64,000 nt of DNA from Myxococcota bacterium (GTDB lineage Bacteria > Myxococcota_A > UBA9160 > PR03): contig JBFIML010000004.1 of NCBI GenBank assembly GCA_041611735.1, forward strand, positions 1-64,000, read 5' to 3'. The position numbers were made by a program, and so were the translations under genes. Numbering within the stretch: position 1 is the stretch's first letter; the number at the start of each line of letters is the position of its first letter. The notes beneath the pieces were generated by a model. It was not told the origin of the DNA, ran no database searches, and saw nothing but the letters and a program-made list of their open reading frames with translations. Below, piece after piece: positions 4,064 through 21,402 of this stretch.

Positions 4064-4882
4064 ATGAAAGCGATTCAGGGCATCAGCCTGGTGGATGTGA
4101 GTACGGTCTACGACGGCCCCGAGGTCGACCTGTGGGAGCTCGTGATGGGTCAGCAGGTCCACATCGGCGGCTTCCGGTCGTCGATGGAGCTGGCCGAGCG
4201 CGCCGGCGTGGGCGCGGGCCAGCGGGGCGTGGACCTCTGCTGTTGCAGCGGTGCGGGAATGCGCTTGCTGGTGCGCTTCCGCGACGTCGCCTCGATGACC
4301 GGCGTCGACGCCACGCGGACCGTGGTCGAGCGCGGCATCGCTCGAACCGACGAAGAAGGCCTTTCCGACCGAATCCGATTCGTCCGCGCGGACGCCTGCG
4401 ACACCGGCCTGCCCGATGCCCAGGCCGACTTCGTCTGGGGCGAGGACGCCTGGTGCTACGTCGTGGACAAGCCGGGGCTGGTGCGGGAGGCCGTGAGGCT
4501 CGTGCGGCCGGGAGGCACGATCGCCTTCACGGATTGGATCGAGGGCCCGACCGGCTTGGACGAAGCCGAGGCGGAGCGCCTGCTCCGCTTCATGAAGTTC
4601 CCGAACGTACAGGACTTGTTTGGCTATTCGCAGCTTCTCGAAGGAAGCGGCTGCGAGGTGGTCGAGGCCTCGGATACCGGACGCTTCGCTCCCCACATCG
4701 ATCTGTATCTCGACATGATCGACAAGCAGCTCACGTACGACGCGCTGCGCATCATCGGTTTCGACAGCAAGGCGCTCGAGGCGCTCGCCGGTGGCATGAG
4801 CTTCCTCCAGGAACTCGCCCGGGCGGGCAAGGTGGCGCAGGGACGCTTCGTCGCGCGCCGCCGCGAGGAGACGCCTCGCTAG
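4064..4882 (+). CDS. Class I SAM-dependent methyltransferase
   Basis: Motif I variant VDLCCCSGAG, GVDAT, VRADAC, LVRPGG. Confidence 0.85.
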   Translation: MKAIQGISLVDVSTVYDGPEVDLWELVMGQQVHIGGFRSSMELAERAGVGAGQRGVDLCCCSGAGMRLLVRFRDVASMTGVDATRTVVERGIARTDEEGLSDRIRFVRADACDTGLPDAQADFVWGEDAWCYVVDKPGLVREAVRLVRPGGTIAFTDWIEGPTGLDEAEAERLLRFMKFPNVQDLFGYSQLLEGSGCEVVEASDTGRFAPHIDLYLDMIDKQLTYDALRIIGFDSKALEALAGGMSFLQELARAGKVAQGRFVARRREETPR

Positions 4883-6183
4883 CGAGGGTTGCCGACGGCC
4901 TCTGAGCCTGCGGAGCCCGCTCGGCGCTCGTCCCGATGGCCGCCCGAGAGGTCGATTGCGAAGCCCCGCTCGCGCAGCAGGTCCTTGGCAATGGTGAGGG
5001 TCTGGATCTCGCTGGTTCCGGCGGCAACGGTCCACAGTTTGATGTCGCGGAAGAGCCGCTCGGGCGCGTGCTCCTGCATGTAGCCCGAGCCGCCCAGCAC
5101 CTGGACCGCCTCGAGGGCGGCCTCGACGGCCGCCTCGGTGGCATACCACTTGGCTGCACTCAATTCGCGCTCGGAGCCCTTCTGCTCGCGTTGCAGCCAG
5201 ATCAGCTTGAAGGTCAGGTTGCGCACGTTCTCGTACAGCACGTACATGCGCGCCAGCTTCTGCTGGATCAGTTGGAACGCTGCGATCGGCTTCCCGAACT
5301 GCTGGCGGTCCATGGCGAAGGCGATCGAGTCCTCGAGGCAGCGCTCGATCACCCCGAGGCACATGGCCACCACCGCGGCACGCTCGATGGCCAGCGTCCG
5401 CTCCGCCAGCGTTCGTGCCGGACGTTCGGGATCGCCGAGCAGGTGGCTGCGCGGCACCCGGCAACGCTCGAGGAAGACCTCGCCCGTGGGCGTGGCGTGC
5501 ATGCCGAGCTTCTTCATCGGCGTTCCGGTGGAGAGGCCCGGGGTGCCTCGCTCCACCACCACGGGGAAGACATGCCGCTTGTCGCGCCGGTCGCCCCCCG
5601 CGGTCTCGAGGCGCGCGTAGATCAGGAAGACGTGGGCGGCCGGCGCATTGGAGATGAAGGTCTTGCTTCCGTCGATGATTGCCTCATCCCCCTCGATGCG
5701 CACCGAGGTCTTGAGGGCGAAGGCATCGGAGCCGGAGCCGGGCTCCGTGAGCGCCCAGCAACCCACCTTCTCGAGGGTGAACACGGGGATGGCACAGCGC
5801 TCGATCAAGTCGGCGTCGCCCTTCGCAGCGATCGTGGAGCCGCAGCCGAAATTGCTCATCAGGCAGAGCGCGAGGCCGGGGCTCACGCGCGCGAGCTCCT
5901 TGGAGACGAGCGCCGAGACGGCGGGATCCCCGCCCCAAGCGTGCGCGTCGCCGTCGCGGGCCTCCACCCCCACGCTGCCTCCCTCGCGCAGGTGCTGCAC
6001 CTTCTTGCGCAGGGAGGAGCCGAGCAGAGCATCGAGGCCGAAGGTATCGGCGAACTTGCGCAGCACCGGGTACGGCGATCGCTCGCCCGACTCGATCCGG
6101 GGGACCAGCGGCTCGATCTCCCGGCGGCAGAATCCACGGATCGCGTCCTGGATGGCGAGATGGGTGTCGTCGAACTCGAACAT
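4879..6183 (-). CDS. Acyl-CoA dehydrogenase (isovaleryl-CoA dehydrogenase-type Glu placement)
   Basis: WALTEPGSGSDA, GSKTFISNA, QQFGKPI, VLGGSGY, AAGTSEIQ; start taken at MFEFDD; stop overlaps the convergent methyltransferase stop. Confidence 0.92.
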   Translation of the reverse strand: MFEFDDTHLAIQDAIRGFCRREIEPLVPRIESGERSPYPVLRKFADTFGLDALLGSSLRKKVQHLREGGSVGVEARDGDAHAWGGDPAVSALVSKELARVSPGLALCLMSNFGCGSTIAAKGDADLIERCAIPVFTLEKVGCWALTEPGSGSDAFALKTSVRIEGDEAIIDGSKTFISNAPAAHVFLIYARLETAGGDRRDKRHVFPVVVERGTPGLSTGTPMKKLGMHATPTGEVFLERCRVPRSHLLGDPERPARTLAERTLAIERAAVVAMCLGVIERCLEDSIAFAMDRQQFGKPIAAFQLIQQKLARMYVLYENVRNLTFKLIWLQREQKGSERELSAAKWYATEAAVEAALEAVQVLGGSGYMQEHAPERLFRDIKLWTVAAGTSEIQTLTIAKDLLRERGFAIDLSGGHRDERRAGSAGSEAVGNPR

Positions 6184-6271: not shown

Positions 6272-6700
6272 TCACGAATCGGGCGCGCCGGCATCGAGAT
6301 CGCGATCGATCGACTCGAGGAGGTGCTCCTCCGCCTGCTCGTGCTCGTGGAAGCCGTTCCAGAGCTCGGCCAGAGCCCCCTGGGCCCGCTCCGAGTCGTT
6401 CGCTGCCAGGCCAGCGCGGACCCCTTCCAGGAGCTCGAGCAGATCGCCGTGGGCTTCCACGAGGGCGCTCAGGGCCGCCTTGCGTTGCGGCTGGAGCGCC
6501 CAGATCGAGGGGTAGTAGAGACACCCCTCCCGGTCGAAGTGCGCCTCCAGGGCTTCGCCGAGCTGCGCCAGGATCTCTCGGCTCGGCTCCCCGTCGGCAC
6601 CCCGAAGAGCCCTCCTCAGCTCCTCGAACAGAGCCTCGAGCTGGCGATGCTCCGCGGCCACCTCCCGGCGCACCCCTTGCTCCGTGTCCCAGGCCGGCAT
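6272..6700 (-). CDS. Hemerythrin (HHE) domain protein
   Basis: Helical 142 aa with EH...HFDRE...EAH...HEQAEE diiron-ligand pattern; purine-rich RBS. Confidence 0.8.
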   Translation of the reverse strand: MPAWDTEQGVRREVAAEHRQLEALFEELRRALRGADGEPSREILAQLGEALEAHFDREGCLYYPSIWALQPQRKAALSALVEAHGDLLELLEGVRAGLAANDSERAQGALAELWNGFHEHEQAEEHLLESIDRDLDAGAPDS

Positions 6701-6798: not shown

Positions 6799-7467
6799 TT
6801 GCCCGAGCAACCGGACGTCGAGATCGAACAGGCGGAGTTCTACCGGAGCTTGCGGGCGGAGCAGATGGAGCGGGTGCGCCACCACCTCCGCCCGCGCCAG
6901 TACCCGAAGCAGCGCATGCTGTTCTTCGAGGGAGAGCCGGCGGAGTACCTCTGGGCCCTGCACCGGGGAGGCGTGCGCCTGTACCGCAGCTCCCTGCAGG
7001 GACGCATCGCGACGCTGGAGACGCTGGGGCCCGGGAACGTCTTCGGCGCGCTCTCCGCCATCGAGCAGGACACCTACCCGGTCAGCGCCGAGACGCTGGG
7101 GGAGACCGTCGCCTGGCGGCTGCCGCGACGCGCTTTTCTGGGCCTCCTCGCGGAGGACCCGCGCCTCGGCCTGGAGATCCTGCGCATCGTCTCGCAGCGC
7201 CTGCGCGAGGCGCAGGCCCACCTGTTGTCCCTCGCCCATGACTCCGCCCCCACGCGCCTCGCCCGGGCGCTGCTCAACGCCACCTCGGGCAACGAGGCGC
7301 GGGTGACGCGCCGGGCGCTGGCCGAGGTGGCGGGAACCTCGGTGGAGACGGCGATCCGGGTGCTGCGGCGCTTCGAGCGCGAGGGGCTCATCCACGGCGA
7401 GATCGGACGGCTGGAGGTGCTCGACCGGCCGGCGCTCCAGCGCATCGCGGGCCAGGGCGAGGGCTGA
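6799..7467 (+). CDS. Crp/Fnr-family regulator, Cys-free (Dnr/NnrR-like)
   Basis: cNMP-like domain (LFFEGEPA, GNVFGA, YPVSA) plus HTH GTSVETAIR; TTG start chosen from GGAG at 6791 (the ORF track starts at 6763). Confidence 0.88.
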   Translation: MPEQPDVEIEQAEFYRSLRAEQMERVRHHLRPRQYPKQRMLFFEGEPAEYLWALHRGGVRLYRSSLQGRIATLETLGPGNVFGALSAIEQDTYPVSAETLGETVAWRLPRRAFLGLLAEDPRLGLEILRIVSQRLREAQAHLLSLAHDSAPTRLARALLNATSGNEARVTRRALAEVAGTSVETAIRVLRRFEREGLIHGEIGRLEVLDRPALQRIAGQGEG

Positions 7468-7553: not shown

Positions 7554-10400
7554 GTGGCTGGTCTCTCGCGACGCGAGTTCCTCGGGGCCGGTGCGGCGGG
7601 CGCGCTTGCGCTCGGGCTGAACCGCCTCGCCTGGCTGACGCCGCCCGCCGCGCGAGCCGCAGCGGCTCCTGCCTACCTCGGCTGGCAGGACCTGTATCGC
7701 GAGCGCTGGCGCTGGGAACGGGTGGTGCGCGGCACCCACACCAACGCCAACTGCGTCTCGTCCTGCGCCTGGAACCTCTACGTGCGCGGCGGGATCGTCT
7801 GGCGCGAGGAGCAGTCGTCCCCCTATCTGGCGTCGAACCCGGCGCTGCCAGACTGGAACCCGCGCGGCTGCCAGAAGGGCGCAAGCTGCAGCGACCTGGC
7901 CCTCGGGCCCGCGCGGATCCGCCACCCCCTTCGCCGCGTCGGCGCGCGGGGTGAGGGACGCTGGAAGCGGATCTCGTGGGACGAAGCGCTCGAGGAGATC
8001 GCCGGCGCACTGCTGGAGGTCCTCGCGCGGCGCGGAGGGGAAGGGGTCGTCTGCGAGCTGGGACCGAACGTGGACTACGGACCGAACACCGCCGCGGCCC
8101 TGCGCTTCTTCCGCCAGATCGGCGCGCCCCTCACGGACTCGATGGCCCAGATCGGGGATCTGGCGGTGGGGGGCACGATCACCCTGGGCACGCCGCACAC
8201 CGACGGCACCTCCGATGACTGGTTCCGCTCCGACTACCTCGTGCTCTGGGCCTTCAATCCCGCGGCGACGCGGATTCCCGACGCCCACTTCGTCCACGAA
8301 GCGCGCTACCGGGGTGCGCGGGTGGTCTGCGTCGCACCCGACTACAACCAGAGCGCCATGCACACGGACCTCTGGCTGGGAGTCCGGCCCGGGAGCGACG
8401 CCGCGCTGGCGCTGGCCGCCTGCCAGGTGGTGCTGGAGGAAGACCTGCACCACGCCGACTACCTGCGCGAGCAGACGGACCTCCCCTTCCTGGTCCGCAG
8501 CGACGGCCGGCGCCTGCTGCGCGAGTCGGACCTGATCGAGGGGGGCCGCGACGATCGCTTCGCGTTCTGGGACGAGGCGGCCGACGCCCTGGTCTGGGCT
8601 CCGGGCACGGCGGGCAGTACGGAGCGCACCTTGCGGCTGCCCCCGGGCGTGCGTCCGGCGCTGGAGGTACGCCGCACGGTACGCCTGCGCGACGGGAAGC
8701 CGGTGGAGGTGCGCAGCGTCTTCTCCCTGCTGCGCGAGCGGCTCCACGGCGGCTTCCGTCCCGAGCAGGTCGCCGCCCACACCGGCATCGCTCCCGACGT
8801 GATCCGGCGCTTCGCGCGGGAGTTCGCCCGGGCGCGCTCCGCGCTCATCCTCGCCCAGTGGGGAAGCTGCAAGAACTACCACTCGGACCTGATCCAGCGC
8901 GCCCAGATCCTGCTGGCGTCGCTCACCGGGAACCTGGGACGCCCGGGGGGCGGCTGGCGTTCCGGGGCCTTCGTGGTGCTCGACGGGCTCGGAGCGGTGG
9001 CGTTGCAGGACCGGCTCGGCCTGCTCGGCCTGGGCCAGCTCTTCCTCCGCTCGCTCTTCGATCCCGAGGCCGTGCGGAGCGAGTTCGAGTCGATGTACGT
9101 CCCGAGCACGATCTTCCACGCCGTGCACGGGGGCCTGGCCGAGTTCGAGGGCGCCGCGGCCCACGGCGATCCGATGCTGCCCCGGGGCGCCGCGCCCTAC
9201 CTCGAAGCGGCGGTGCGGCGCGGGCACTTTCCGGTGGGGCCCGCGCCCGGGTCGGCCCCGCCCGAGGTGATCTTCTCCTTCTGCGGCAACGTGCTCCGGC
9301 ACACCCGCATGGGAGAGCGGGTGCGCGACACGCTCTTCGCCCGCGCGCGCCTGGTCGTGGACCTGAACTTCCGGATCAGCGAGACCGGCCGCTACGCGGA
9401 CATCCTGCTGCCGGCCGCGGCCTGGTACGAGAAGATCGGCATCAAGTACATCGCCGCCTTCGTCCCCTACGTCACGCTGGCGGACAAGGCCGTCGAGCCG
9501 CTGGGCGAGGCGAAGCCGGAGTGGGAGGTCTTCGCCCGCCTCGCCGCCGCCGTCGCCACCGAAGCCAGGCGGCGCGGGGTCGGCCCGGTGCGCGGCTTCC
9601 GCGGCCAGCCCTGCGAGATCTCCGCGCTCGACGAGCGCTTCAGCGACGGCGGGCGCTTCGGCCCCGATGCCCAGGAGGACGTGATGAGGCTGATCCTGCG
9701 GCTCTCGCAGCCGACCCGCGGCATCAGCCTGGAGGACCTGAGACGCGAGGGCGGAGCGCTGCGGATCCGGAGCCTCGGCAGCCAGGGCGGCACCGCAGGA
9801 ATCTTCTCCGATTACGCGCCGGACGAGCCGGTGGTCCCGCTGCGCGACTTCGTGGAGAAGAAGCAGCCCTATCCGACGCTGAGCGGGCGTCAGCAGTTCT
9901 ACGTGGACCATCCCTGGTTCCTCCAGCTCGGCGAGGAGCTCCCCACCCACAAGGCCCCGCCCGCCGCGGGCGGGGCCCACCCCTTCACGCTGACCGGCGG
10001 ACACACGCGCTGGAGCATCCACTCCATGTGGCGCGATCAGGCGCTGATGCTGCGCCTGCAGCGCGGCGAGCCGGCCGTGTATCTCAACGCGTCGGATGCC
10101 CGGGCGCGTGGGATCAGCGACCACGACCTGGTCCGGGTGCGCAACGATTGCGGGGCGTTCGTGGCCCGGGCCAAGCTCTCGGGGGGAATCCGGCCCGGAC
10201 AGGTGCACATCTTCCACGCCTGGGAGCCCTACCAGTTCCGCACCGGACGGAGCCACCAGTCCCTGGCGCCGAGCCCGTTCAAGGTGACCCAGCTGGTGGG
10301 AGACCACGGGCATCTGCGTTGGGGCTATGCGCACTACGAGCCGAACCAGGTCGATCGCGACACGCGCGTCGACGTGGAGCGGCTCGGGGCCTCCGTCTAG
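7554..10400 (+). CDS. Type II Mo-bisPGD alpha subunit A2, Tat signal
   Basis: SRREFLG plus hydrophobic region; THTNANCVSSC...GCQKG; QIGDLAVG; CKNYHS; GGHTRWSIHS. Confidence 0.93.
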   Translation: MAGLSRREFLGAGAAGALALGLNRLAWLTPPAARAAAAPAYLGWQDLYRERWRWERVVRGTHTNANCVSSCAWNLYVRGGIVWREEQSSPYLASNPALPDWNPRGCQKGASCSDLALGPARIRHPLRRVGARGEGRWKRISWDEALEEIAGALLEVLARRGGEGVVCELGPNVDYGPNTAAALRFFRQIGAPLTDSMAQIGDLAVGGTITLGTPHTDGTSDDWFRSDYLVLWAFNPAATRIPDAHFVHEARYRGARVVCVAPDYNQSAMHTDLWLGVRPGSDAALALAACQVVLEEDLHHADYLREQTDLPFLVRSDGRRLLRESDLIEGGRDDRFAFWDEAADALVWAPGTAGSTERTLRLPPGVRPALEVRRTVRLRDGKPVEVRSVFSLLRERLHGGFRPEQVAAHTGIAPDVIRRFAREFARARSALILAQWGSCKNYHSDLIQRAQILLASLTGNLGRPGGGWRSGAFVVLDGLGAVALQDRLGLLGLGQLFLRSLFDPEAVRSEFESMYVPSTIFHAVHGGLAEFEGAAAHGDPMLPRGAAPYLEAAVRRGHFPVGPAPGSAPPEVIFSFCGNVLRHTRMGERVRDTLFARARLVVDLNFRISETGRYADILLPAAAWYEKIGIKYIAAFVPYVTLADKAVEPLGEAKPEWEVFARLAAAVATEARRRGVGPVRGFRGQPCEISALDERFSDGGRFGPDAQEDVMRLILRLSQPTRGISLEDLRREGGALRIRSLGSQGGTAGIFSDYAPDEPVVPLRDFVEKKQPYPTLSGRQQFYVDHPWFLQLGEELPTHKAPPAAGGAHPFTLTGGHTRWSIHSMWRDQALMLRLQRGEPAVYLNASDARARGISDHDLVRVRNDCGAFVARAKLSGGIRPGQVHIFHAWEPYQFRTGRSHQSLAPSPFKVTQLVGDHGHLRWGYAHYEPNQVDRDTRVDVERLGASV

Positions 10401-10424: not shown

Positions 10425-11663
10425 GTGACGGGTCGCGGCAGCGAGCGGGCGGGACTCCGGGAAGGGCTGCCCCTCGTCATCGCGGGGTTCGTGATCTCCT
10501 TCGTGCTGATCGGCGGCGGGGTGAACAGCGTGGGCGTGTTCCTGAACGCCATCGCCCAGGGAACCGAATGGACGCGCTCCGCGCTCTCCCTGGCCGTGGG
10601 CGTGGGCGCCGGGGTGGCGGCGCTCTGCGTGCCCGCGGTGGGTCTCGCCGTGGACCGCGTGGGCGTGCGGGTGCCGATGACCGGCGGACTCGCGCTACTC
10701 GCCGCCGGCTTCTCCATCCTGGTCGGAATGCAGGCCCCCTGGCAGTTCGTGGCGGCGAACGTGCTCCTCGGGGCCGGCTTCGCTGCGTCGGCCTTGTTTC
10801 CGATCACGGTCGCGATCACCCTGCGCATTCGCGAGCGCACGGCCCTGGCCCTGGGCCTCGCCGCGGCCGGCTCGAGCGCGGGCGCCCTGGTGCTGGCGCC
10901 CATGCTGCAGCTCGCCATCGAAGCGCTGGGGTGGCGCACCACCTATCTGGTGCTTGGCGTGGCCGTGGTGGCGACCCCGCTCCCGTTGCTCGCCTTCGCG
11001 CTGCCGCGCGGACGCCTGATGGGCCCGGCCGCCGTGAAAGCCCGCGGTGCCGCCCCTCTAGCCGGGTCCGGCCCGCTCGAGTGGCTCCAGCCGGGCGTCG
11101 CGACGCTCGCGGCCCTGCTGGTGCTCCCGAACCTGGCGACCTTCGCCGTCTCGGTCCACCTCGTGCCGTACCTGACGGGAATCGGCCTGTCGGGACGCAC
11201 CGCGGCGCTGGCGCTGGGGACGACGGTGGGCATCTCGGCCCTGGGCAAGATCCTGGGCGGCGCAGCGGGCGACCGCCTGGGCCTGCGAGCCACGCTCCAG
11301 GGGGCATTGCTGCTGGGCTTCGTCTCCCTGGGGCTGCTGGCCTGGGCCAGCGAGCCGCGCGCACTGGTCGGGTTCGTGGCGCTCTACGGCCTGGCCCTCG
11401 GCACCTACGTCGCCGTGATCCCGCCGCTCGCGCGCGACGTGCTCGGCGCGGAGCGTTTCGGCGCTCGCTACGGAACGCTCCAGCTCGGCGGCATGCTCGC
11501 GGCCGCCGCGGGCCCCGTACTGGCAGGAGCCTGCTTCGATGCCACCGGCCGCTATCGGGAGGCGATCGGGCTCTGGCAGGGGGCCCTGGCGGCCGCCCTC
11601 GCGGTGTCGCTGCGGCTGCGCGCCGTGGCCGCACCCCAGGAGCCGCAGGTCGCAGCGCCATGA
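10425..11663 (+). CDS. MFS transporter
   Basis: About 12 hydrophobic segments; GLAVDRVGVR and GAAGDRLGLR motif-A loops. Confidence 0.88.
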   Translation: MTGRGSERAGLREGLPLVIAGFVISFVLIGGGVNSVGVFLNAIAQGTEWTRSALSLAVGVGAGVAALCVPAVGLAVDRVGVRVPMTGGLALLAAGFSILVGMQAPWQFVAANVLLGAGFAASALFPITVAITLRIRERTALALGLAAAGSSAGALVLAPMLQLAIEALGWRTTYLVLGVAVVATPLPLLAFALPRGRLMGPAAVKARGAAPLAGSGPLEWLQPGVATLAALLVLPNLATFAVSVHLVPYLTGIGLSGRTAALALGTTVGISALGKILGGAAGDRLGLRATLQGALLLGFVSLGLLAWASEPRALVGFVALYGLALGTYVAVIPPLARDVLGAERFGARYGTLQLGGMLAAAAGPVLAGACFDATGRYREAIGLWQGALAAALAVSLRLRAVAAPQEPQVAAP

Positions 11664-14518
11664 GCGGGCTCACCCGGCGCGAGCTCCTGATCGGCGGAGC
11701 GGCGGGCTGCGCCTCGCTCTCGCTGTCCCGCCTGCTGCCGCGGCCGGCTGCCACCTCGACCGGGGGAGGACCGGCTGAGGCCCGCCTCCGCTACCACGGG
11801 GTCGCGGATCTCTACCGCCGGGCCTGGCGCTGGGACCGCGTCGTGCGCGGCACCCACCTGCGGGCCAACTGCTTCAGCGCCTGCGCGTTCGACCTCTACG
11901 TGAAGGACGGCGTGGTGTGGCGCGAGGAGCAGAGCGACGTCTACGCGCGCTCGGTCCCGCAGCTGCCCGACTTCGCCCCGCGCGGCTGCCAGAAGGGAGC
12001 CTGTTACAGCGACGCGATGCTGGGTCCGGATCGGCTCACGCATCCCCTCGAGCGCGTCGGGCCGCGCGGCTCGGGCCGCTGGCGGCGCATCTCCTGGGAG
12101 CGGGCGCTGACCCGTCTCGCCGACGCGATCCTCGACGCCATCGAGCAGGGGGGAGCCGAGACCGTCGTCTTCGACAACGGCACCTCCAACGTGGACGACG
12201 GTCCGAGCAGCCTGGGGGAGATGCGCCTCTTCTCGCTGCTGGGCGCCACCCTGCTCGACGGTTTCGGGGGCACCGGCGACCTGGCCATGGGGGCGGTCCA
12301 GACCTGGGGCACCTCCTTCGTGGACGGGAGCGCGGACGACTGGACCCGGGCCGACACCCTGATCTTCTGGCACTGCAACCCCGTCGCAACCCGGATTCCC
12401 GACGCCCACTTCGCCAGCGAGGCGCGCTACCGGGGTGCCAGCGTGATCACGATCGCGCCGGACTACTCGCCGAGCGCGATCCACGCCTCGCTCTGGATCA
12501 ACCCGCGCCCGGGAACCGACGCTGCGCTGGCCCTCGGACTCGCGCGGGCGCTGCTCGAGCGCGGCGTCCTAGACGAGGCCTACCTGCGCGAGCAGACCGA
12601 TCTCCCCTTCCTCGTGCGCGAGGACGACGGACGCTTCCTGCGCGAATCCGACCGCAAGAAGAAGGGCCGGGACGACACCTTCTACGTCTACGATCTCGCC
12701 TCGTCCCGGATCGTCGAGGCCCCAGGCACGGCGGGGCAGCGCAGCGACTCGATCGCCCTCGGCGCGCTGCGGCCGGCACTCGCGGGCCGCTACGAGGTCC
12801 GCACGCTGCGAGGAAACGTGACCGTCCGCCCGGTCCTGGAGCGGCTGCGCGAGCGCCTGGCGCCGTACACGCCGGAGCACGTAACCAGGATCACCGGGGT
12901 GGGGCCGAGCGTGCAGGCAGCGCTGACCGACCACCTCGCGCAATCCGGACGCACGCTGATCTACGCCTCGTGGGGCTCCAACAAGGGCTACCACGCCGAC
13001 CTGCTGCAACGCTCCCTGATCCTGCTCTCGGCACTGCGAGGCCAGCACGGCCGCGCCGGGAGCGGAGTGCGATTCGCCGCCTGGCTGCCGCTCGAGGGGG
13101 CCAATGCGCTGCTGCCCGGGTCACAGCCCTCCCGGCTGCAACGGCTGCTGCTGCGCTTCTACACGCCGCCACCGCGCCTGGTGGAGAACGCCATCGCCGA
13201 GGCGTCGCGGCGGGCGCTCACCTGGACGCCCTCGCACCTCTTCCTCTACGTCCACGGCGGGCTCGACCGGCTCCAGGACGCGGACGCCCAGGATCCCGCG
13301 CTGCCGCGACCCGCCCGCGACTACATGCGCGAGGCCCTGGAGCGCGGCTGGGCTCCGGTGCGTCCGCGCCCCGACCGCTCGCCGCAAGTGCTGGTGACCT
13401 CGGGCGTGAATCCCCTGCGCCGCTGGCCCGTTCCCCAGCAGGTCGAACGGGTGTTGTGGCCCAAGCTGCGTCTCGTCGCGGCGCTCGACTTCCGGCTCTC
13501 CACCACCGGCGCGAAGGCCGATCTCCTGCTCCCCGCGGCCGGCTACTACGAGAAGTGCGGCATCAAGTACGCGCTCGCCCTGGTCCCCTACGTGGTCGTG
13601 GGAGAGCGGGCGGTCGCACCCGTGGGCGAAGCGAAGGGGGAGTGGGAGGTGATGGCGCTGCTTGCGCGCCGGATCCAGGAGCGTGCCCGGGAGCGGGGTC
13701 TGGACGGCGCCGCGGCGCACCTCTACGAACGCTTCAGCGAGGGAGGGCGCTGGGGGCCGGGAGACGACGAGGCGCTGCTCGACCGCATCCTTCGCTCCTC
13801 GTCCGCGACGGGAGGCGTCGGCTGGGACGAGGCGCGCCGGGCCGGCGCGATTCCGCTGCGCTCGGCGGGGGGCTGGGGCACGACGAGCGGCATCGGAAGC
13901 GAGATCGAGCCGGGAGGAACCCTGAGCCCGTCTCGCATCCACGTGGAGGAGCGCCGCGCCTGGCCGACCCTCACCGGGCGCCAGCAGTTCTACCTCGACC
14001 ACCCCTGGTTTGCCGAAGCGGACGAGGCGTTGCCGCGCTGGAAGCCGCCGCCGCGTCCCGGGGGCGCCCATCCCCTGCTGCTCACGGGAGGCCACACGCG
14101 CTGGAGCATCCATGCGATCTGGCGCGCACACCCGGCGCTGCTGCGGCTTCAGCGCGGCGGGCCGGTCATGTGGGTATCCGTGGAGGACGCCCGTGCGCGG
14201 GGAATCGGAGACGGGGACCGGGTGCGCGTCTTCAACGATCACGGCGCGTTCCGGGTCCAGGTCAAGACCTCGGCCGCCGTGGCCCCCGGCGAGGTGATCC
14301 TCTATCACGCGTGGGAGCCGTACCAGTTTCCCGGCTGGCAGGGAGAGATGGAGCTCGTGTCCTCGCCCTACAAGCCACTCCACCTGGTCGGGGACTACGG
14401 ACACCTGCGCTACCGGGTGTTCCAGGCCGGGCCCGTCCATGTACCCCGGGGCGTCCCCGTCGAGATGGAGCGCGACGCGGGTGCCGCCGAGCTTGCCGGC
14501 GCCGGGAGCCATTCGTGA
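11660..14518 (+). CDS. Type II Mo-bisPGD alpha subunit A3, Tat signal
   Basis: ATGA overlap with the MFS stop; LTRRELL; THLRANCFSAC...GCQKG; GTGDLAMG; GGHTRWSIHA. This is the real part of the 8858..14518 track ORF. Confidence 0.92.
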   Translation: MSGLTRRELLIGGAAGCASLSLSRLLPRPAATSTGGGPAEARLRYHGVADLYRRAWRWDRVVRGTHLRANCFSACAFDLYVKDGVVWREEQSDVYARSVPQLPDFAPRGCQKGACYSDAMLGPDRLTHPLERVGPRGSGRWRRISWERALTRLADAILDAIEQGGAETVVFDNGTSNVDDGPSSLGEMRLFSLLGATLLDGFGGTGDLAMGAVQTWGTSFVDGSADDWTRADTLIFWHCNPVATRIPDAHFASEARYRGASVITIAPDYSPSAIHASLWINPRPGTDAALALGLARALLERGVLDEAYLREQTDLPFLVREDDGRFLRESDRKKKGRDDTFYVYDLASSRIVEAPGTAGQRSDSIALGALRPALAGRYEVRTLRGNVTVRPVLERLRERLAPYTPEHVTRITGVGPSVQAALTDHLAQSGRTLIYASWGSNKGYHADLLQRSLILLSALRGQHGRAGSGVRFAAWLPLEGANALLPGSQPSRLQRLLLRFYTPPPRLVENAIAEASRRALTWTPSHLFLYVHGGLDRLQDADAQDPALPRPARDYMREALERGWAPVRPRPDRSPQVLVTSGVNPLRRWPVPQQVERVLWPKLRLVAALDFRLSTTGAKADLLLPAAGYYEKCGIKYALALVPYVVVGERAVAPVGEAKGEWEVMALLARRIQERARERGLDGAAAHLYERFSEGGRWGPGDDEALLDRILRSSSATGGVGWDEARRAGAIPLRSAGGWGTTSGIGSEIEPGGTLSPSRIHVEERRAWPTLTGRQQFYLDHPWFAEADEALPRWKPPPRPGGAHPLLLTGGHTRWSIHAIWRAHPALLRLQRGGPVMWVSVEDARARGIGDGDRVRVFNDHGAFRVQVKTSAAVAPGEVILYHAWEPYQFPGWQGEMELVSSPYKPLHLVGDYGHLRYRVFQAGPVHVPRGVPVEMERDAGAAELAGAGSHS

Positions 14519-15576
14519 ACGACGAGCTGGCGCGACGCCTGGAACGCTTCTTGGCCCATCGGATCCCCGAGGTCCGCTGCCTGCGGGTGGTGGCTCTCGA
14601 GTCGCCGAGCGAAGGCTTCTCCCAGGAGACCTTCTGCTTCGAGGTGGAGACCGAGCGGGACGGAGAACGCCACCGGCGCGGGTACGTGGCCAAGCGCGAG
14701 CCGGTGGCCGGCCTGCTCGAGCCCTACGACCTGGAGCCCGAGTTCCGCGTGCTGCACGCCCTCTGCGACGTCCCGTGTGTGCCGGCGGCCCACTGGTTCG
14801 AAGCCGACGGCGCCGTGCTGGAGCGGCCCTTCTACGTGATGGACCGCCTCGAGGGGGAGGTCCCGATTCCCGCCGCGGGTCCGGGGGGCGCGGGACCCTT
14901 CAGTGAGGCGGAGCGCAAGGCGCTCGGTCCCCAGGTGATCGAGACGTTGACCCGCCTCCACGCCATCGATTGGCGCTCGCGCGGCTTCGGCTTCCTGGAC
15001 CCGCCAGCCCCCGGCCGCGAGGCGGCCCAGCGCGAACTCGAGCGCTGGACGCGGAGGATCGTGCAGAGCCGCCTGCCGGCCGGGCCCGTGGTGCGCGAGG
15101 CGCTGCTATGGCTGCACCGCAACGTTCCCTGCAGCCCCGAGGTGACCCTCGTACACGGCGACTTCCGGCTCGGGAACTGGCTGGTGGTGCGTGAGGGCGG
15201 AGGGGCGCGCCTCACCGGCGTGCTCGACTGGGAGATGGTGCACCTCGGCGATCCGTTCGAGGACGTGGCCTGGTGCATCTCTCCCATGTGGCGCGCGGGC
15301 ACGCCGTACGCGGCGGCCCTGCTGCCAGACACGGAGTTCCTGGAGTGCTACGGCCGCGTAGCCAGGCGCGCCCTCGACCCGGCCCGGCTGCACTTCTACG
15401 CGGTGCTCTCGGTGGTCAAGATGATCGCGATCGAGCTGACCGGACTGCGCACCTTCCTCGACCAGCGCACCCGCGACCTCCGCATGGCGATCTTCGAGCA
15501 CCAGATCCCGTTCCTGGAGGCGCTGCTGGCCGCCTTGCGCGGCTGGCTCGCGCCCGATCGCCCCGGAGGAGTCTGA
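14515..15576 (+). CDS. APH-family phosphotransferase (LvaA/ACAD10-11 kinase-domain-like)
   Basis: GTGA overlap; EFRVL, PFYVMD, LVHGDFRLGN, LDWEMVHLGDPFEDVAW. Confidence 0.88.
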   Translation: MNDELARRLERFLAHRIPEVRCLRVVALESPSEGFSQETFCFEVETERDGERHRRGYVAKREPVAGLLEPYDLEPEFRVLHALCDVPCVPAAHWFEADGAVLERPFYVMDRLEGEVPIPAAGPGGAGPFSEAERKALGPQVIETLTRLHAIDWRSRGFGFLDPPAPGREAAQRELERWTRRIVQSRLPAGPVVREALLWLHRNVPCSPEVTLVHGDFRLGNWLVVREGGGARLTGVLDWEMVHLGDPFEDVAWCISPMWRAGTPYAAALLPDTEFLECYGRVARRALDPARLHFYAVLSVVKMIAIELTGLRTFLDQRTRDLRMAIFEHQIPFLEALLAALRGWLAPDRPGGV

Positions 15577-16043
15577 TGCGCATCCCGGTCCCGACCTTGA
15601 TCGACGGCGTCGAGCGAGCCCTGCTGGAGGCCGTGCTGCCCGAGCTGCGGTCGCGGAGCGCCCGCGGACAGCTCTACGCCGCCGTGGACGTGCTGCGCAA
15701 CCTGCGCGACCGGATCGCGCCCCGGCCGGAGCTCCTCGAGGCGGAGGCCGTGTCGCTCGCGCGGTCGCTCGAGCTCTGCGCGGAACAGCTCCAGGAGGTG
15801 GGCGCCGCGGAAGCAGCCAGCCAGCTGCGCAGCCGTCTCGGCACGGCCGGGAGCGGACCGGCGCTGGAGCGCCTGACGGCGCTGCGCGAGAGCTTCGAGC
15901 TGGCGCTCACGCTCGTGGACGCTCTACCCGAGGCGGCGGCCTCCCCCGCGCAGGCCGCGCTCGGCGAGCACCTGGCGAGCCAGGCCCTGCGCTCGGTCAG
16001 CGTCCTCAAACCTTCGCTGCTGGGAGAGATCTCGCGGGGCTGA
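15576..16043 (+). CDS. Small helical protein coupled to the phosphotransferase (possible LvaB-like partner)
   Basis: TGATG overlap with GGAGGAG RBS; 155 aa, helical, VLPELRSRSARGQLYAAVDVLRNL. Confidence 0.7.
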   Translation: MRIPVPTLIDGVERALLEAVLPELRSRSARGQLYAAVDVLRNLRDRIAPRPELLEAEAVSLARSLELCAEQLQEVGAAEAASQLRSRLGTAGSGPALERLTALRESFELALTLVDALPEAAASPAQAALGEHLASQALRSVSVLKPSLLGEISRG

Positions 16044-16128: not shown

Positions 16129-16659
16129 GTGCACGAAGCGCAGCCAGTGGTGGTCGGAGTGGTGGGCGAGTCGGGGAGCGGCAAGACCACGCTCCTCGAA
16201 CGGCTCGTTCCGCTGCTGGCCGGCCGCGGGCTCGCGGTCGCCGCGGTGAAGCACGCCTCCCACGGCTTCCAGGCGGACCGCCCCGGCAAGGACTCCCATC
16301 GGCTCTATCGGGCCGGGGCACGTGCCGTCGTGCTGGCCTCGCGCACCGAGCTCGCGGTGTTCGCGCGGCATCCCACCGGGGCGGAGGAGCTGCGCCTCGC
16401 CGACGCCCTGGCCGCCCTGCCGGGACGGGCGGACGTGGTGCTGGTGGAGGGCTTCTCCTGGGAGGCGATCCCGCGCATCGTCGTGCTCCGGGACCGCGAG
16501 CAGCCGGCTCCGCAGCACCTGACGGGCGGGGAGGTGCTCGGGATCGTGCGCGCCCCGGCTCCCGCGGTCGGCCGCAAGCCGGCCTTCGCCCGGGCGCAGC
16601 TCGCCTCGTTGGTGGAGAGGATCTCGGATCTCGCCGGGCGGTCGGCCCGCTCGGCCTGA
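16129..16659 (+). CDS. mobB: Molybdopterin-guanine dinucleotide biosynthesis protein B
   Basis: GESGSGKTT P-loop, VKHASH, DRPGKDS, VLVEGF; AAGGAG RBS. Confidence 0.88.
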   Translation: MHEAQPVVVGVVGESGSGKTTLLERLVPLLAGRGLAVAAVKHASHGFQADRPGKDSHRLYRAGARAVVLASRTELAVFARHPTGAEELRLADALAALPGRADVVLVEGFSWEAIPRIVVLRDREQPAPQHLTGGEVLGIVRAPAPAVGRKPAFARAQLASLVERISDLAGRSARSA

Positions 16660-16746: not shown

Positions 16747-17418
16747 ATGCAGGCTCGCCACGTCGCCGGCGCCGACCTGGAGGCGCTGCTCGATCCGGCC
16801 GGGCGGCCCTGGCGCGGCGTGCGCTCCGAACGGCTCGCCCTGGTCGGGACCCCAGCGGGCATGCAGCCGAGCGCGGCGATCCGCGTGGCCTGGACGGGAA
16901 AGCGGATCGGAGCCGTGGACCGCGTCGCCGTCTCGAGCCTCCACAACGGTGAGGTCCTCGCCTTCCGGCTCGAGTGGCAGGACGCCACCGAGGATCGCGC
17001 CCTCATCGACACCAACTCCTTCCCGGACGCGGCGGCGGTGGCTCTGCCCGCGGCGCCCGAGGCGCCGCTGGTCACCATGGGAGCGCCGGGTGCTGCGGTG
17101 AACGCCTGGTACTGGCGCGCCGACGAGGACGGCCGCGGACGGCACGTCGTGGCCGAGGGCCTGGGAACCTCGCGCACCCTCGATCTCGAGCGGGTGCGCG
17201 GGCGCGGAGTGTGGAAGGAGGGACGCTGGCGCGTCGTCGTCGCCCGGCCGCTGCGCGTGGCCACCTCGGAGCCGGTGGTCCAGCTCGAGCCCGGCAAGAC
17301 CACGCGCTTCGCGGTGGCGGTCTGGGACGGACGGAGCGGCGAGCGCGCCGGGATCAAGGCCTTCTCGGCGGGATGGCGCGAGCTTCGCCTCGAGCCCGTG
17401 GCCAGGGCCGGGAGGTAG
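16747..17418 (+). CDS. Heme b gamma subunit (EbdC-like)
   Basis: FRLEWQD, FPDAAAV, VTMG (Met ligand), AVWDG...ERAGIK (Lys ligand); AAGGAGG RBS; no signal peptide. Confidence 0.88.
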   Translation: MQARHVAGADLEALLDPAGRPWRGVRSERLALVGTPAGMQPSAAIRVAWTGKRIGAVDRVAVSSLHNGEVLAFRLEWQDATEDRALIDTNSFPDAAAVALPAAPEAPLVTMGAPGAAVNAWYWRADEDGRGRHVVAEGLGTSRTLDLERVRGRGVWKEGRWRVVVARPLRVATSEPVVQLEPGKTTRFAVAVWDGRSGERAGIKAFSAGWRELRLEPVARAGR

Positions 17419-17420
17419 CC

Positions 17421-18449
17421 ATGGCGAAGAGCAAGCGGCAGCTCGCGATGGTGATGGACCTGAACAAGTGCATCGGGTGCCAGACCTGCACCATCGCGTG
17501 CAAGCGCCTCTGGACCCGCGACGAGGGCATGGAGTACATGTGGTGGAACACCGTGAACACCATGCCCGGCCGCGGAACGCCACGCGACTGGGAGGAGATG
17601 GGTGGCGGCTTCCACCAGGGCCAGCCGCGGCCGGGACGTCTGCCCACGCGCCGCGAATTCGGCGAGGCCTGGGACTTCAACCACGAGGAGGTCTTCTTCG
17701 GTGGCCAGGGGACCCAGGCTCACCTCAAGGTCGCCGGCGAGGAGCCCGACTGGGGGCCGAACTGGGACGAGGACCAGGGCGCCGGCGAGTACCCGAACGC
17801 CTACTACTTCTACCTGCCGCGCATCTGCAATCACTGCACCCATCCAGCCTGCCTCGAGGCCTGCCCGCGCCAGGCGATCGTGAAGCGCGAGGAGGACGGC
17901 ATCGTCCTGATCGACGAGGACCGCTGCCGCGGCTACCGCTTCTGCGTGGAGGCGTGTCCGTACAAGAAGATCTACTTCAACCACGTCAAGAAGGTGTCCC
18001 AGAAGTGCATCTTCTGCTTTCCGCGCATCGAGCAGGGGGTGGCCAACGCCTGCGCGCGGATGTGCCCGGGCCGGGTGCGCTTCGTCGGCTACCGCGACGA
18101 TCCGAACGGGCCGATCGCGAAGCTCGTGGACCAGTGGAAGGTGGCGCTCCCCCTGCACCCGGAGTACGGAACCGAGCCCAACGTCTTCTACGTCCCGCCG
18201 CTGGCCCCGCCCCGCTTCGACGAAGAGGGCAACCTCGACGAGTCGAAGCCGCGCATTCCGGACGCGTACCTGATCTCCCTCTTCGGTCCCGAGGTGCTCC
18301 GGGTTCTCGCCACCTTGAAGACCGAGATGGCCAAGACGCGGGCGGGCGGGAAGTCCGAGCTGATGGACATCCTGATCGCCTACCGCTGGAAGGACATGTT
18401 CGGCGGTTTCGACCGCGACCCGGCCACCATCGAGTGGACCAAGGCCTGA
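17421..18449 (+). CDS. Fe-S beta subunit B1 (EbdB/NarH-like)
   Basis: DLNKCIGCQTCTIAC, CNHCTHPACLEAC, CRGYRFCVEAC, CIFC...CARMC, LHPEYGTEPNVFYVPP. Confidence 0.95.
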   Translation: MAKSKRQLAMVMDLNKCIGCQTCTIACKRLWTRDEGMEYMWWNTVNTMPGRGTPRDWEEMGGGFHQGQPRPGRLPTRREFGEAWDFNHEEVFFGGQGTQAHLKVAGEEPDWGPNWDEDQGAGEYPNAYYFYLPRICNHCTHPACLEACPRQAIVKREEDGIVLIDEDRCRGYRFCVEACPYKKIYFNHVKKVSQKCIFCFPRIEQGVANACARMCPGRVRFVGYRDDPNGPIAKLVDQWKVALPLHPEYGTEPNVFYVPPLAPPRFDEEGNLDESKPRIPDAYLISLFGPEVLRVLATLKTEMAKTRAGGKSELMDILIAYRWKDMFGGFDRDPATIEWTKA

Positions 18450-18504: not shown

Positions 18505-21402
18505 GTGAGCGAGAACCAGGGCAGCGAGGACCGCCGGGGCCGGATCAGCCGGCGCGCGTTCCTCGGTACCGCTGCCGTGGGGGCGGCCGGCCTGGCCGGC
18601 GCGAGCCTGGGACTCTGCCGCCTGCGTCCCACGGCGCCGCTCTGGGAGGCCGGGCGGACCCCGACCGCAGCAACCGTCTACGGCGACTGGCGCGATCTCT
18701 ACCGCGAGCGCTGGTCCTGGGATCGGATCGTCCGCAGCACCCACTTCGTCAACTGCTGGTACCAGTCCCACTGCGCCTGGGACGTCTACGTAAAGGACGG
18801 CGTCGTGTGGCGCGAGGAGCAGGCGGCGGACTACCCGCAGATCCGGCCCGACGTGCCCGACTTCAATCCCCGCGGCTGCCAGAAGGGGGCCTGCTTCAGC
18901 GAGCGGATGTACGACCCCGCGCGTGTCCGTTATCCGCTCAAGCGCGTGGGGCCGCGCGGCTCGGGGCGTTGGCGTCGCCTCTCCTGGGAACAGGCCCTGG
19001 AGGAGATCGCCGACTCCCTGCTGGACACCGTCACGGGAGAGGGATCCGAACGCGTGATCTGGGATCTGGGCCCGCTCTACACCTTCGGAACCATGTCCGC
19101 GGCGCACCAGCGGCTGGCCTTCCTGCTCGACTCGACCAGCCTCGACATGAACACCGAAATCGGAGACGGCCATCGCGGCGTGGCCGAGACCTTCGGCAAG
19201 ATCGTCTTCGAACGCTCTGCCGACGACTACTTCTTCTCCGATCTCATCCTGATCTGGGGCGCCAACCCGGTCTATACCCAGATTCCGAACGCTCACTTCC
19301 TGCTGGAAGCCCGCTACAAGGGCGCGCAGCTGGTCTGCATCTCCCCCGACCACAGTGCGTCGGCGATCCACGCCGACCTGTGGGTGCCGGTCGAGCCCGG
19401 GTGCGACGCCGCCCTGGGCCTCGGCATCGCGCACGTCCTGGTGGAGGAGGGACTCTTCGACGAGAGCTTCGTCGCCGAGCAGACCGACCTCCCCCTGCTG
19501 GTGCGCGAGGACACCGGGCGTTTCCTGCGCGGTAGCGACCTCGGGGCCGACGAGGCCGACGCGCTCTACCTGCACGATCCCGAACAAGGCATCGTCGCCG
19601 CGCCGCGCCGCACCCTGTCCCTGGGCGGGCTGCGTCCGTCCCTGCAGGGGCGCTACCAGGTGGATCTCGCCGACGGCCGGCGGGTGGTGCTGCGGACGGT
19701 CTTCTCCCGGCTCCGCGATCGCCTCGGCGGGTACGACCCGGAGCGCGCCGCGGCCCGTTGCGGAACGCCGCCCGCCCTGATCCGCGACCTGGCCCGGAGG
19801 ATCGCCCGGGCGCGCTCCGCCTGCTCCGTCACGACCAGCAACTTCAGCAAGTACTACCACGGCAACCTGATCGAGAGGACGCAGGCCCTCGTGTTCGCCT
19901 TGACGGGACACTACGGCAAGAAGGGCAGCGGCTTCGTGGGTTTCCCGTTCCTGGTCCACGACGGCCTCGACGGGGCCATCCTCTCCGTCATCGAGCCGGC
20001 CGATCGGCTGCGGCTGGTGGGAGGCGCCCTGCTCGACGGCCTGCGCCTGCGTCGTGCGGGGTACACCGAGGAGATGGTCGCCTACGAGCGCAGCCGCAAA
20101 CGCTACGAGCTGGGCGTCATCACCTCGGGCGCGCTGTTCTGGTACGTGCACGGAGGGTTGCTCGCGGCCAGTGACGCGCTCGAGCAATGGGACCCCCATC
20201 TGCGGCGGCCGGTCCGCGACGTCCTGCTCGAGTCGCTCTCGAAGGGTTGGCAGCACGTCTCGCCCAGCCCGGGCGACGACCCGCGCATGCTCTTCGTCTA
20301 CGGAAGCAACCCGCTGCGGCGCGTGCGCTGCTATCCGCTGCTGCTCGAGAATCTCTGGCCCAAGCTGCGCACCATCGTGACGCTCGACTGGCGGATGACC
20401 TCGACGGCCCTGCACTCCGACTACGTGCTTCCGGTGGCTGCCTGGTACGAGCGCACGGAGCACAAGTGGGTGACGCCGCTCATGCCCTTCGTCCACGCCG
20501 GCCAGAAGATCACATCCTTCTACGAGGCCCGCTCCGATTGGGAGATCCTCTCCCGCCTGGCGCGGGCCGTGCAGGAGCGTGCGCGCGCACGCGGCTTGCG
20601 CAGCTTCACCGACCGGCAGGGCAGGACGCGCCCGCTGGCGGACCTGTACCAACGCTTCTCCCGGGGCGGTCTCCAGGCGGAATCCGACGACGATAAGGTG
20701 GCGCGCGCGCTGCTCGAAGGCGCCAGCAATCTGGAAGGAGTGGATTGGGAGGAACTGAAGCGGCGCGGATGGGCGCGCTTCACCGGCGTGGGCAAGAGCG
20801 AGGTCTCGATCGGAAACGCCTCCGAGATCGCACCGAACGACACAATCACGCCTCTCACCCGACACGTGGTGGGAAAGCAGCCCTACCCCACCCTCACGCG
20901 GCGCATCCAGTTCTATCTGGACCACGAGCTCTACCGCGAGATGGGCGAGGAGCTGCCCGTCCACAAGGACCCGCCCAGCGCCGGAGGCTCCCATCCCCTC
21001 CAGCTCACGGGCGGGCATACCCGCTGGAGCATCCACTCGGCCTGGCGGGACGATCGCCTGATGCTGCAGCAGCAGCGGGGGGAGCCGGTGATGTGGATCG
21101 GCGTAAAGGACGCCTCCGCTCGCGGCATCCGGGACGGCGATCGGGTGCGGGTCTTCAACGACCTGGACGCCTTCGAGGTGATGGCCAAGGTCTCGCCCGC
21201 GGTCCGGCCGGGGCAGGTGATCGTGTACCACGCCTGGGAGAACTTCCAGTTCCGCGGCGGCAAGGGCTTCCAGAACCTGATTCCCACGCCGCTCAACCCG
21301 GTCGAGCTGGCCGGGGGCCAGTTCCACCTGCGGCCGATGTCGCTCTGCCTGCAGCCGAGCCACACGGACCGCGACACGCGTGTGGAGGTGGAGCGACTGT
21401 GA
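18505..21402 (+). CDS. Type II Mo-bisPGD alpha subunit A4, Tat signal
   Basis: ISRRAFLG; THFVNCWYQSHC...GCQKG; EIGDGHRG; SKYYHG; GGHTRWSIHS. Confidence 0.93.
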   Translation: MSENQGSEDRRGRISRRAFLGTAAVGAAGLAGASLGLCRLRPTAPLWEAGRTPTAATVYGDWRDLYRERWSWDRIVRSTHFVNCWYQSHCAWDVYVKDGVVWREEQAADYPQIRPDVPDFNPRGCQKGACFSERMYDPARVRYPLKRVGPRGSGRWRRLSWEQALEEIADSLLDTVTGEGSERVIWDLGPLYTFGTMSAAHQRLAFLLDSTSLDMNTEIGDGHRGVAETFGKIVFERSADDYFFSDLILIWGANPVYTQIPNAHFLLEARYKGAQLVCISPDHSASAIHADLWVPVEPGCDAALGLGIAHVLVEEGLFDESFVAEQTDLPLLVREDTGRFLRGSDLGADEADALYLHDPEQGIVAAPRRTLSLGGLRPSLQGRYQVDLADGRRVVLRTVFSRLRDRLGGYDPERAAARCGTPPALIRDLARRIARARSACSVTTSNFSKYYHGNLIERTQALVFALTGHYGKKGSGFVGFPFLVHDGLDGAILSVIEPADRLRLVGGALLDGLRLRRAGYTEEMVAYERSRKRYELGVITSGALFWYVHGGLLAASDALEQWDPHLRRPVRDVLLESLSKGWQHVSPSPGDDPRMLFVYGSNPLRRVRCYPLLLENLWPKLRTIVTLDWRMTSTALHSDYVLPVAAWYERTEHKWVTPLMPFVHAGQKITSFYEARSDWEILSRLARAVQERARARGLRSFTDRQGRTRPLADLYQRFSRGGLQAESDDDKVARALLEGASNLEGVDWEELKRRGWARFTGVGKSEVSIGNASEIAPNDTITPLTRHVVGKQPYPTLTRRIQFYLDHELYREMGEELPVHKDPPSAGGSHPLQLTGGHTRWSIHSAWRDDRLMLQQQRGEPVMWIGVKDASARGIRDGDRVRVFNDLDAFEVMAKVSPAVRPGQVIVYHAWENFQFRGGKGFQNLIPTPLNPVELAGGQFHLRPMSLCLQPSHTDRDTRVEVERL

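Follow-up and report, generated by a model that had tools for sequence, protein, structure and literature searches.

A kinase and a small helical partner behind a molybdenum-hydroxylase gene in an uncultured Myxococcota bacterium: a candidate for ATP-dependent alcohol dehydration

We carried out a computational analysis of a 64,000-nucleotide stretch of DNA from a Myxococcota bacterium (GenBank assembly GCA_041611735.1, contig JBFIML010000004.1, positions 1 to 64,000; henceforth the window), centred on two genes that follow A3, one of several alpha-subunit genes of molybdenum (Mo) hydroxylases found there. The first encodes an APH-fold kinase (henceforth KIN) and the second a 155-residue protein (henceforth the partner). 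The G+C content of the window is 72%, and the raw list of open reading frames (ORFs) is therefore full of spurious frames; genes were mapped by frame analysis of third-position G+C (GC3) together with a simple coding-score gene caller. In the GC3 analysis, A3, KIN and the small ORF appear as three consecutive genes on the plus strand. A preliminary description of the window had linked them by overlapping stop and start codons, and this arrangement was confirmed: KIN begins with a GTG at 14515 that shares bases with the A3 stop TGA (14516-14518), forming the 4-base junction GTGA, while the partner ATG at 15576 overlaps the KIN stop TGA (15574-15576) by one base in the junction TGATG, with GGAGGA directly upstream of the partner start.

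The membership of KIN in the APH family, earlier proposed from the motifs HGDFRLGN and DWE, was borne out by a match to the Pfam model PF01636 at 123.3 bits (cut-off 23.2), with HGDFRLGN at residues 214-221 and D238 within LDWEM. Five residues (K60, E76, D216, N221 and D238) are invariant across 27 kinase orthologues; from their positions in the motifs, we take them to belong to the catalytic HxDxxxxN loop, the metal-binding Asp and the beta3 Lys/alphaC Glu. Judged by its sequence, KIN is thus an intact APH-type kinase. Its closest relatives in the PDB are 3dxp, 9o56, the ACAD11 kinase domain and Rv3168: sequence comparison gave E 1e-22 for 3dxp and E 1.5e-20 for 8v3v, both kinase domains of the ACAD10/11 type, and E 2e-18 for 3ats/3att, which carries the PDB title 'Putative uncharacterized protein' and which we take to be Rv3168. 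The match to 9fsg ('aminoglycoside phosphotransferase-like protein') was weaker than those to ACAD11 and 3ats (E 4.1e-12).

The partner belongs to a real gene family, which is undescribed and has neither a Pfam nor an NCBIfam model. We found 168 homologues at E<=1e-3 in a 90%-clustered database, and a 24-member profile found 328 representative clusters at E<=1e-3, 82 of them at <=1e-10. All named homologues are 'hypothetical' except one with the source label 'predicted component of type VI protein secretion system'; precomputed Pfam domains were absent from all 168, and the partner itself matched no Pfam model even at E 10 and no NCBIfam model. Its invariant residues fall in two motifs, one at residues 29-46 (ARGQLYAAVDVLRNLRDR; invariant pattern ARGQLYAxxDxLxNLRDR) and one at residues 132-153 (HL..Q..R.....LKPSLL.EIS). 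The predicted structure is all-helical, with seven helices and a mean pLDDT of 88, in keeping with the earlier description of the small ORF as helical. A Foldseek search of the PDB with this model gave no match at E<=1e-3. Fold neighbours obtained with VIA-align wide were discarded as generic helical bundles (EzrA, Z 8.5; apolipophorin-III, Z 8.2), scores that are within noise for helical models. A search for longer homologues returned a single 416-residue protein, a candidate kinase-partner fusion that we did not count as one because its sequence looks like a frameshifted read-through from kinase into partner.

Structure prediction of KIN together with the partner suggests that the latter binds the kinase as a subunit. 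Three runs gave ipSAE values of 0.83, 0.79 and 0.83, with partner pLDDT of at least 87 and contact agreement of at least 95%, and the highest-scoring of three controls reached 0.00. Of 157 solved complexes, 116 attain the mark used for such scores, as do 2 of 215 mismatched pairs; these rates hold only roughly here, custom alignments having been used for both chains. The small protein had been likened in the preliminary description to the small partner of LvaAB, and the predicted complex agrees with that likeness. The modelled interface involves residues 118-120, 187-202 and 308-345 of the kinase and residues 1-19, 104-115 and 129-154 of the partner. The motif at residues 29-46 lies outside it, and the partner therefore has a second conserved surface that the predicted interface leaves unaccounted for.

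We then considered which genes accompany the pair in other genomes. A pattern scan with one genome per species yielded 35 partner loci, which come from Myxococcota, Binatia or 'Deltaproteobacteria' metagenome-assembled genomes (MAGs), or from MAGs labelled Thermodesulfobacteriota, Proteobacteria or uncultured bacterium. A kinase orthologue, 58-66% identical to KIN, directly precedes the partner in all 33 loci with upstream DNA, as it also does in all 28 further loci of the order with a scorable kinase. Downstream DNA is available for 33 loci, and in 32 of them a third gene of ~365 codons follows within a few bases after the partner; the exception is L011. Besides the window's genome and G017 (see below), the kinase-partner pair stands without a lyase gene behind it in two genomes, G104 (L011/L065) and G006 (L041/L083).

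The third gene carries no Pfam domain, yet it scores 411 bits against NCBIfam NF053593, the Rv3169 family (cut-off 150), and its predicted structure, an all-beta model with pLDDT 86.8, is matched in Foldseek by PDB entries 9fzn/9g2i/9g4c (E 4.8e-33, TM 0.82, 35% identity), followed by AttH and kievitone hydratase. By sequence alignment with phmmer, the match to 9fzn has E 1.3e-57. These three entries, released in January 2026, are titled '25-phosphosteroid lyase (25-PSL)'; our search of the open literature found no paper citing their codes, and the comparison rests on the PDB titles. The enzyme was called 'unknown' in 2021 (PMC8449060) and 'putative' in the accessible part of a 2024 paper (PMC11061730). 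Entry 9g4c, with phosphate and product bound, differs from 9fzn by an Asp to Asn change in the motif RDRSWG, and this motif is invariant in our 26-sequence lyase alignment, including the copy in the window's own genome. By sequence and modelled fold, the third gene encodes a homologue of the 25-phosphosteroid lyase whose structure has been solved. Because the KIN orthologues are nearly always co-operonic with this homologue, the logic of phosphorylation followed by elimination, suggested in the preliminary description, is well founded for the kinase family.

Around the cassette of one clade (L012, L017, L021), luciferase-like monooxygenases, an SDR, a PP-binding protein and a MerR/B12-binding regulator recur; a 'luciferase' band co-purified with the activity of the Sterolibacterium 25-hydroxysteroid kinase (25-HSK; PMC8449060).

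The same synteny bears on whether KIN is a resistance phosphotransferase for an antibiotic (aminoglycoside, macrolide or tuberactinomycin). Such a role would fit the APH fold and the weak NCBIfam matches to the APH(3'), Cph and Vph models, but those matches are far below their cut-offs (e.g., 35.9 bits vs. 205) and the genes conserved beside it in the operon encode a lyase homologue and a helical subunit, which leaves this alternative very improbable.

Lyase homologues are of two kinds, a cassette type and a second type named here for contig C11 of the window's genome. That genome has a single lyase homologue (C11:31202-32329), which does not adjoin the kinase pair and which we consider the most likely eliminating enzyme. 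The C11 locus (L056, 5156-10333) forms a second hub for the same putative chemistry: on its minus strand lie genes for DUF6285, an APH kinase and an acyl-CoA dehydrogenase (ACAD) in a layout like that of LvaB/A/C, while the sole 25-PSL homologue of the genome is encoded on the divergent plus strand, together with another APH kinase.

KIN and the partner are part of one island that spans the first ~31 kb of the window, the remainder of which consists of housekeeping genes (Table 1). According to Pfam, the island holds six alphas, two betas, one gamma, one delta, an alcohol dehydrogenase (ADH), an AMP-binding CoA ligase and an ACAD; the last three had already been placed in one island with the kinase pair in the preliminary description, rightly as it turned out. 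Beta, gamma and delta genes accompany A3 in the island, and the window contains every one of the six S25DH/EBDH-like alphas in the genome (4.09 Mb). A3 scores 822.5 bits against TIGR03479, below the cut-off of 984.75, and matches EBDH (2ivf) at E 6.4e-158.

Table 1. Genes mapped in the hydroxylase island, with window coordinates, strand and basis of assignment.
Feature	Position	Strand	Basis
AMP-binding acyl-CoA ligase, truncated at contig start	2-1162	+	Pfam
Alpha A1, without twin-arginine (Tat) motif	1202-4003	+	Pfam
Methyltransferase	4064-4882	+	Pfam
ACAD, similar to short-chain acyl-CoA dehydrogenases (SCAD-like)	4879-6183	-	Pfam; top PDB matches butyryl/short-chain ACADs
Hemerythrin	6272-6700	-	Pfam
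CRP regulator	6799-7467	+	Pfam
Alpha A2, Tat signal SRREFL	7554-10400	+	Pfam
MFS transporter, between A2 and A3	10425-11663	+	Pfam MFS_1
Alpha A3, probably EBDH/S25DH-type Mo-bisPGD, Tat motif TRRELL	11660-14518	+	Pfam Molybdopterin + Molydop_binding
APH-fold kinase KIN, 353 aa	14515-15576	+	Pfam PF01636, motifs
155-aa helical partner	15576-16043	+	Homologue family; no Pfam/NCBIfam match
MobB (molybdopterin guanine dinucleotide synthesis)	16129-16659	+	Pfam PF03205
Gamma subunit (EB_dh haem b)	16747-17418	+	Pfam PF09459
Beta subunit (4 FeS)	17421-18449	+	Pfam Fer4_11
Alpha A4, Tat signal SRRAFL	18505-21402	+	Pfam, NCBIfam
Alpha A5, Tat signal TRRALL	21399-24299	+	Pfam, NCBIfam
NarJ/SdhD-like delta chaperone	24296-24976	+	Pfam PF02613
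Zn-dependent ADH (Zn-ADH)	24980-26032	+	Pfam ADH_N, ADH_zinc_N
Small cytochrome c	26164-26544	+	Pfam
Second beta subunit	26555-27607	-	Pfam
Alpha A6, without Tat motif	27649-30432	-	Pfam

Twin-arginine motifs open A2, A3, A4 and A5, and are absent from A1 and A6. The latter two also differ in the spacing of the first Fe-S motif (HAVDCYPGGC vs. H-x4-C-x3-C in A2, A3 and A5), and A6 is accompanied by its own beta subunit without a gamma; enzymes of the A1/A6 kind may represent a cytoplasmic two-subunit class. Within the island also lie the genes for a hemerythrin-domain protein and a CRP/FNR-type regulator, a possible sign of oxygen or redox control of the cluster.

To place the partner among known families, we followed an ESM Atlas lead to DUF6285 (PF19802; score 0.86). 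An hhalign comparison of a narrow partner alignment with DUF6285 gave E 0.0033 at a probability of 9.7%, and a 68-sequence alignment gave E 5.5e-5 at 66% with 123 colinear columns from end to end, i.e., a weak to moderate match. The Pfam DUF6285 model did not match the partner at E<=10, nor any of 66 distant family members at E<=0.01. DUF6285, like the partner, is small and helical, and its gene immediately adjoins that of an APH kinase, an arrangement we found in 31 of 31 loci (the window's genome and 30 relatives); in the window's genome it occurs once, on C11, with a third APH kinase and an ACAD as direct neighbours. The partner differs in being ~30 residues longer and in having its own invariant ARGQLYAxxDxLxNLRDR motif. 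From these profile comparisons, a 'DUF6285-like kinase accessory subunit' is a likely but unproven description of it; a search of the open literature on DUF6285 found no relevant paper.

A different explanation is that KIN and the partner are a 4-hydroxyacyl-CoA kinase of the LvaA/LvaB type whose product is handled by the island ACAD, as in levulinate or ACAD10/11 4-hydroxy-acid catabolism. Consistent with this, the top PDB sequence matches of KIN are kinase domains of the ACAD10/11 type, a CoA ligase and an ACAD are present in the island, and in a number of the 31 DUF6285 loci an ACAD match lies within the ~3.3-kb locus; moreover, LvaB, of 12 kDa, was recovered with LvaA in a pull-down, according to the accessible part of a paper citing Rand 2017 (PMC6692424). 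However, the orthologues of KIN are followed in 32 of 33 loci by a lyase homologue and not by an ACAD, the island ACAD is an ordinary one, encoded on the opposite strand and 8 kb away, and a separate DUF6285-APH-ACAD module already exists on C11. ACAD11 was not among the best 60 PDB matches of the island ACAD, and the top ones were ordinary short-chain ACADs. Because this enzyme is SCAD-like, elimination of the LvaC/ACAD10/11 type is not indicated; we rejected such a role for it on the PDB ranking, which weakens the analogy with ACAD10/11 drawn in the preliminary description. Overall, we judge a 4-hydroxyacyl-CoA kinase to be decidedly unlikely.

The reading that we prefer, and to which we assign a probability of roughly 0.55, is that KIN and the partner constitute the ATP-dependent alcohol kinase of a kinase-partner-lyase set, acting after a Mo-hydroxylase. 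Several findings weigh against it, the first of which concern the link to Mo enzymes. None of the 35 species-representative loci had matches to alpha, beta, gamma, delta or MobB within a flank of <=10 kb. The partner was found in 30 of 193 genomes of the order, and among the loci inspected an A3 orthologue stands directly upstream of the kinase only in the window's genome and in one other (G017). The preliminary description had named a lack of conservation of the pair beside Mo-enzyme genes in related genomes as an outcome that would refute its proposal, and this is largely what we observed. Among 41 genomes including the window's, the partner occurs in 16 and S25DH-like alphas (counted at E<=1e-100) in 15; both occur together in 6, compared with 5.9 expected by chance, i.e., there is no association.

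An A3 orthologue occurs in four genomes besides the window's, and in three of them (G014, G015 and G021; 72-76% identity) no kinase lies behind it. Other points concern the enzymes themselves. By sequence, KIN stands nearer to the kinase domains of the ACAD10/11 type than to 9fsg. The C11 lyase shares 50-53% identity with the cassette lyases and adjoins a different APH kinase, 35% identical to KIN, so that use of this lyase by KIN is an assumption. Finally, recombinant 25-HSK is active alone (PMC8449060), which puts the partner outside the known 25-HSK system. The link of the kinase pair to Mo-hydroxylases is rare, not tight.

The genomes that have A3 without the kinase show how this position is occupied elsewhere. 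In G014 and G015, the orthologous island (A2-A3-...-MobB-gamma-beta-A4) is present without the kinase, and a complete kinase-partner-lyase cassette lies on other contigs. In G021, a gene of the hydantoinase-A/oxoprolinase family follows A3 with a 4-base overlap (L050, G021:C328, 192-1718), so that another type of ATP-dependent enzyme holds the slot taken by the kinase in the window. Which gene comes after A3 seems to vary between genomes.

By contrast with these genomes, G017, which belongs to another family, repeats the A3-KIN-partner coupling with the same TGATG junction. In a quick tree (SH-aLRT support, midpoint root), the kinase family formed one group against paralogous APH kinases, and KIN fell in an unresolved polytomy, nearest to the G017 kinase and outside the clade of its own taxonomic family. 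The partner ORF of G017 enters a run of N after residue ~54 (L049, 10421-10579), and the C-terminal part lies 370 kb off, after a second run of N (L053, 8797-9045), beside homologues of the island's MFS and ADH genes. We do not take this split as evidence of a broken partner gene; it probably reflects a scaffolding gap or withheld bases.

In the main rival reading, the widespread lyase homologue would be the only enzyme that the pair works with, the Mo-hydroxylases would have no bearing on the substrate (e.g., an endogenous isoprenoid, carotenoid or sterol-like alcohol), and the position of the pair behind A3 would be a by-product of rearrangement. This would account for the unrelated neighbourhoods of the cassette in the 35 loci (Trp synthesis, luciferase-like monooxygenases, PP-binding proteins), for the presence of the lyase family in 38 of the 41 relatives as against alphas in 15, and for the lack of association between partner and alphas. 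It fits less well with the stop/start overlaps between A3 and the pair (4-base and 1-base), which are kept in two genomes of different families, with the loss of the adjacent lyase from the pair in both A3-coupled genomes, and with the coherent downstream set of ADH, ligase and ACAD in the island. We regard an unrelated substrate as rather unlikely, and retain action after a Mo-hydroxylase as the preferred reading. The hydroxylase-coupled dehydration put forward in the preliminary description has accordingly survived in part: the lyase-linked kinase family, the predicted complex and the island layout speak for it, whereas the scarcity of the Mo link and the SCAD-like character of the island ACAD do not.

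If this reading is correct, the pair would be a two-subunit alcohol kinase, with an APH-fold catalytic subunit and a helical accessory subunit docked on the kinase C-terminal helices, and the cassette would turn a lipid or isoprenoid alcohol that is hard to oxidise (probably a tertiary one) into an alkene through phosphorylation and subsequent elimination of phosphate. Gene structure, family membership, synteny and residue conservation were established by the analysis and the complex was predicted; we infer the substrate, the order of the steps and the use of the C11 lyase as follows. A periplasmic Mo-hydroxylase would add a hydroxyl group from water to a lipid or isoprenoid C-H bond, and the resulting alcohol would be taken up, possibly via the MFS transporter encoded just before A3. 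The kinase-partner complex would then phosphorylate the alcohol and the C11 lyase homologue would eliminate the phosphate, after which a second alpha could hydroxylate the allylic carbon, followed by oxidation by the ADH, activation by the ligase and dehydrogenation by the ACAD.

A more far-reaching idea, which we offer tentatively and think more doubtful than probable, is that the partner founds an undescribed class of obligatory accessory subunits of lipid-alcohol kinases, distantly related to DUF6285 and perhaps to LvaB, which would cap the mouth of the active site and pass a labile, energy-rich phosphoester straight to the lyase via the motif at residues 29-46. Were this so, LvaAB and 25-HSK/25-PSL would be versions of one ancient design of kinase, helper and eliminase, and the window would be the first case of that design hard-wired to a Mo-hydroxylase gene.

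By dehydrating tertiary alcohols at the expense of ATP, anaerobes can oxidise the unactivated end of an isoprenoid without oxygen. To our knowledge, this step has so far been known from one cultured betaproteobacterium, in which the genes are scattered. The coupling to A3 would offer a direct genetic means of telling which hydroxylase supplies the kinase, and the cassette is a testable candidate for pulling a freely reversible kinase reaction forward. More generally, our results suggest that oxygen-independent degradation of sterol or isoprenoid side chains is more widespread than thought.

Among the systems to which the locus can be compared, LvaA/LvaB of Pseudomonas putida and the kinase domains of ACAD10 and ACAD11 share with it an APH-type kinase and the logic of phosphorylation followed by elimination; ACAD11 and 3dxp are the solved sequences nearest to KIN. 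LvaA/LvaB also has a small kinase-binding partner, as predicted here, a likeness drawn from the description of LvaB and not from its sequence, and one of somewhat different sizes (12 kDa vs. 155 residues). In LvaC and ACAD10/11, elimination is carried out by an ACAD on CoA thioesters, whereas the conserved third gene of the KIN family is the 25-PSL homologue.

A second comparison is offered by Rv3168-Rv3169 of Mycobacterium tuberculosis, since the third gene of the cassette falls in the NCBIfam family named for Rv3169. We take these two genes to be adjacent, with no gene for a helical partner between them, and the pair resembles the APH2-lyase pair on C11 more than the pair in the window.

The closest functional parallel would be Sterolibacterium denitrificans, where 25-HSK (SDENChol_21286), which phosphorylates a tertiary C25 alcohol with ATP, and 25-PSL combine an APH-type kinase with an Rv3169/AttH-like lyase in ATP-driven alcohol dehydration, like the set proposed here. 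The cassette lyase homologue retains the Asp that is altered in the 25-PSL entry 9g4c. Sterolibacterium and the window's organism both have many S25DH-type alphas sharing few beta and gamma subunits, as far as the accessible part of PMC6016249 describes the former. The published route runs from S25DH through 25-HSK, 25-PSL and S26DH to a CoA ligase (PMC8449060, with the accessible parts of PMC11061730, PMC6016249 and PMC7411048), and the ADH, CoA ligase, ACAD and alphas of the island mirror it; the 25-HSK reaction is freely reversible, with an equilibrium constant (Keq) below 1 (PMC8449060). The two systems differ in gene order and host: the Sterolibacterium 25-HSK gene has no lyase candidate nearby (PMC8449060), while the cassettes described here place a gene for a helical subunit between the kinase and lyase genes in most genomes, and in the window, which comes from an uncultured Myxococcota/Binatia-like lineage, the pair is translationally coupled to the gene of a hydroxylase alpha. 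In addition, KIN is only distantly similar to PDB 9fsg (E 4e-12). Systems of this kind are already known, and what is new is the third subunit, the compact cassette in these uncultured bacteria and the coupling to an alpha gene.

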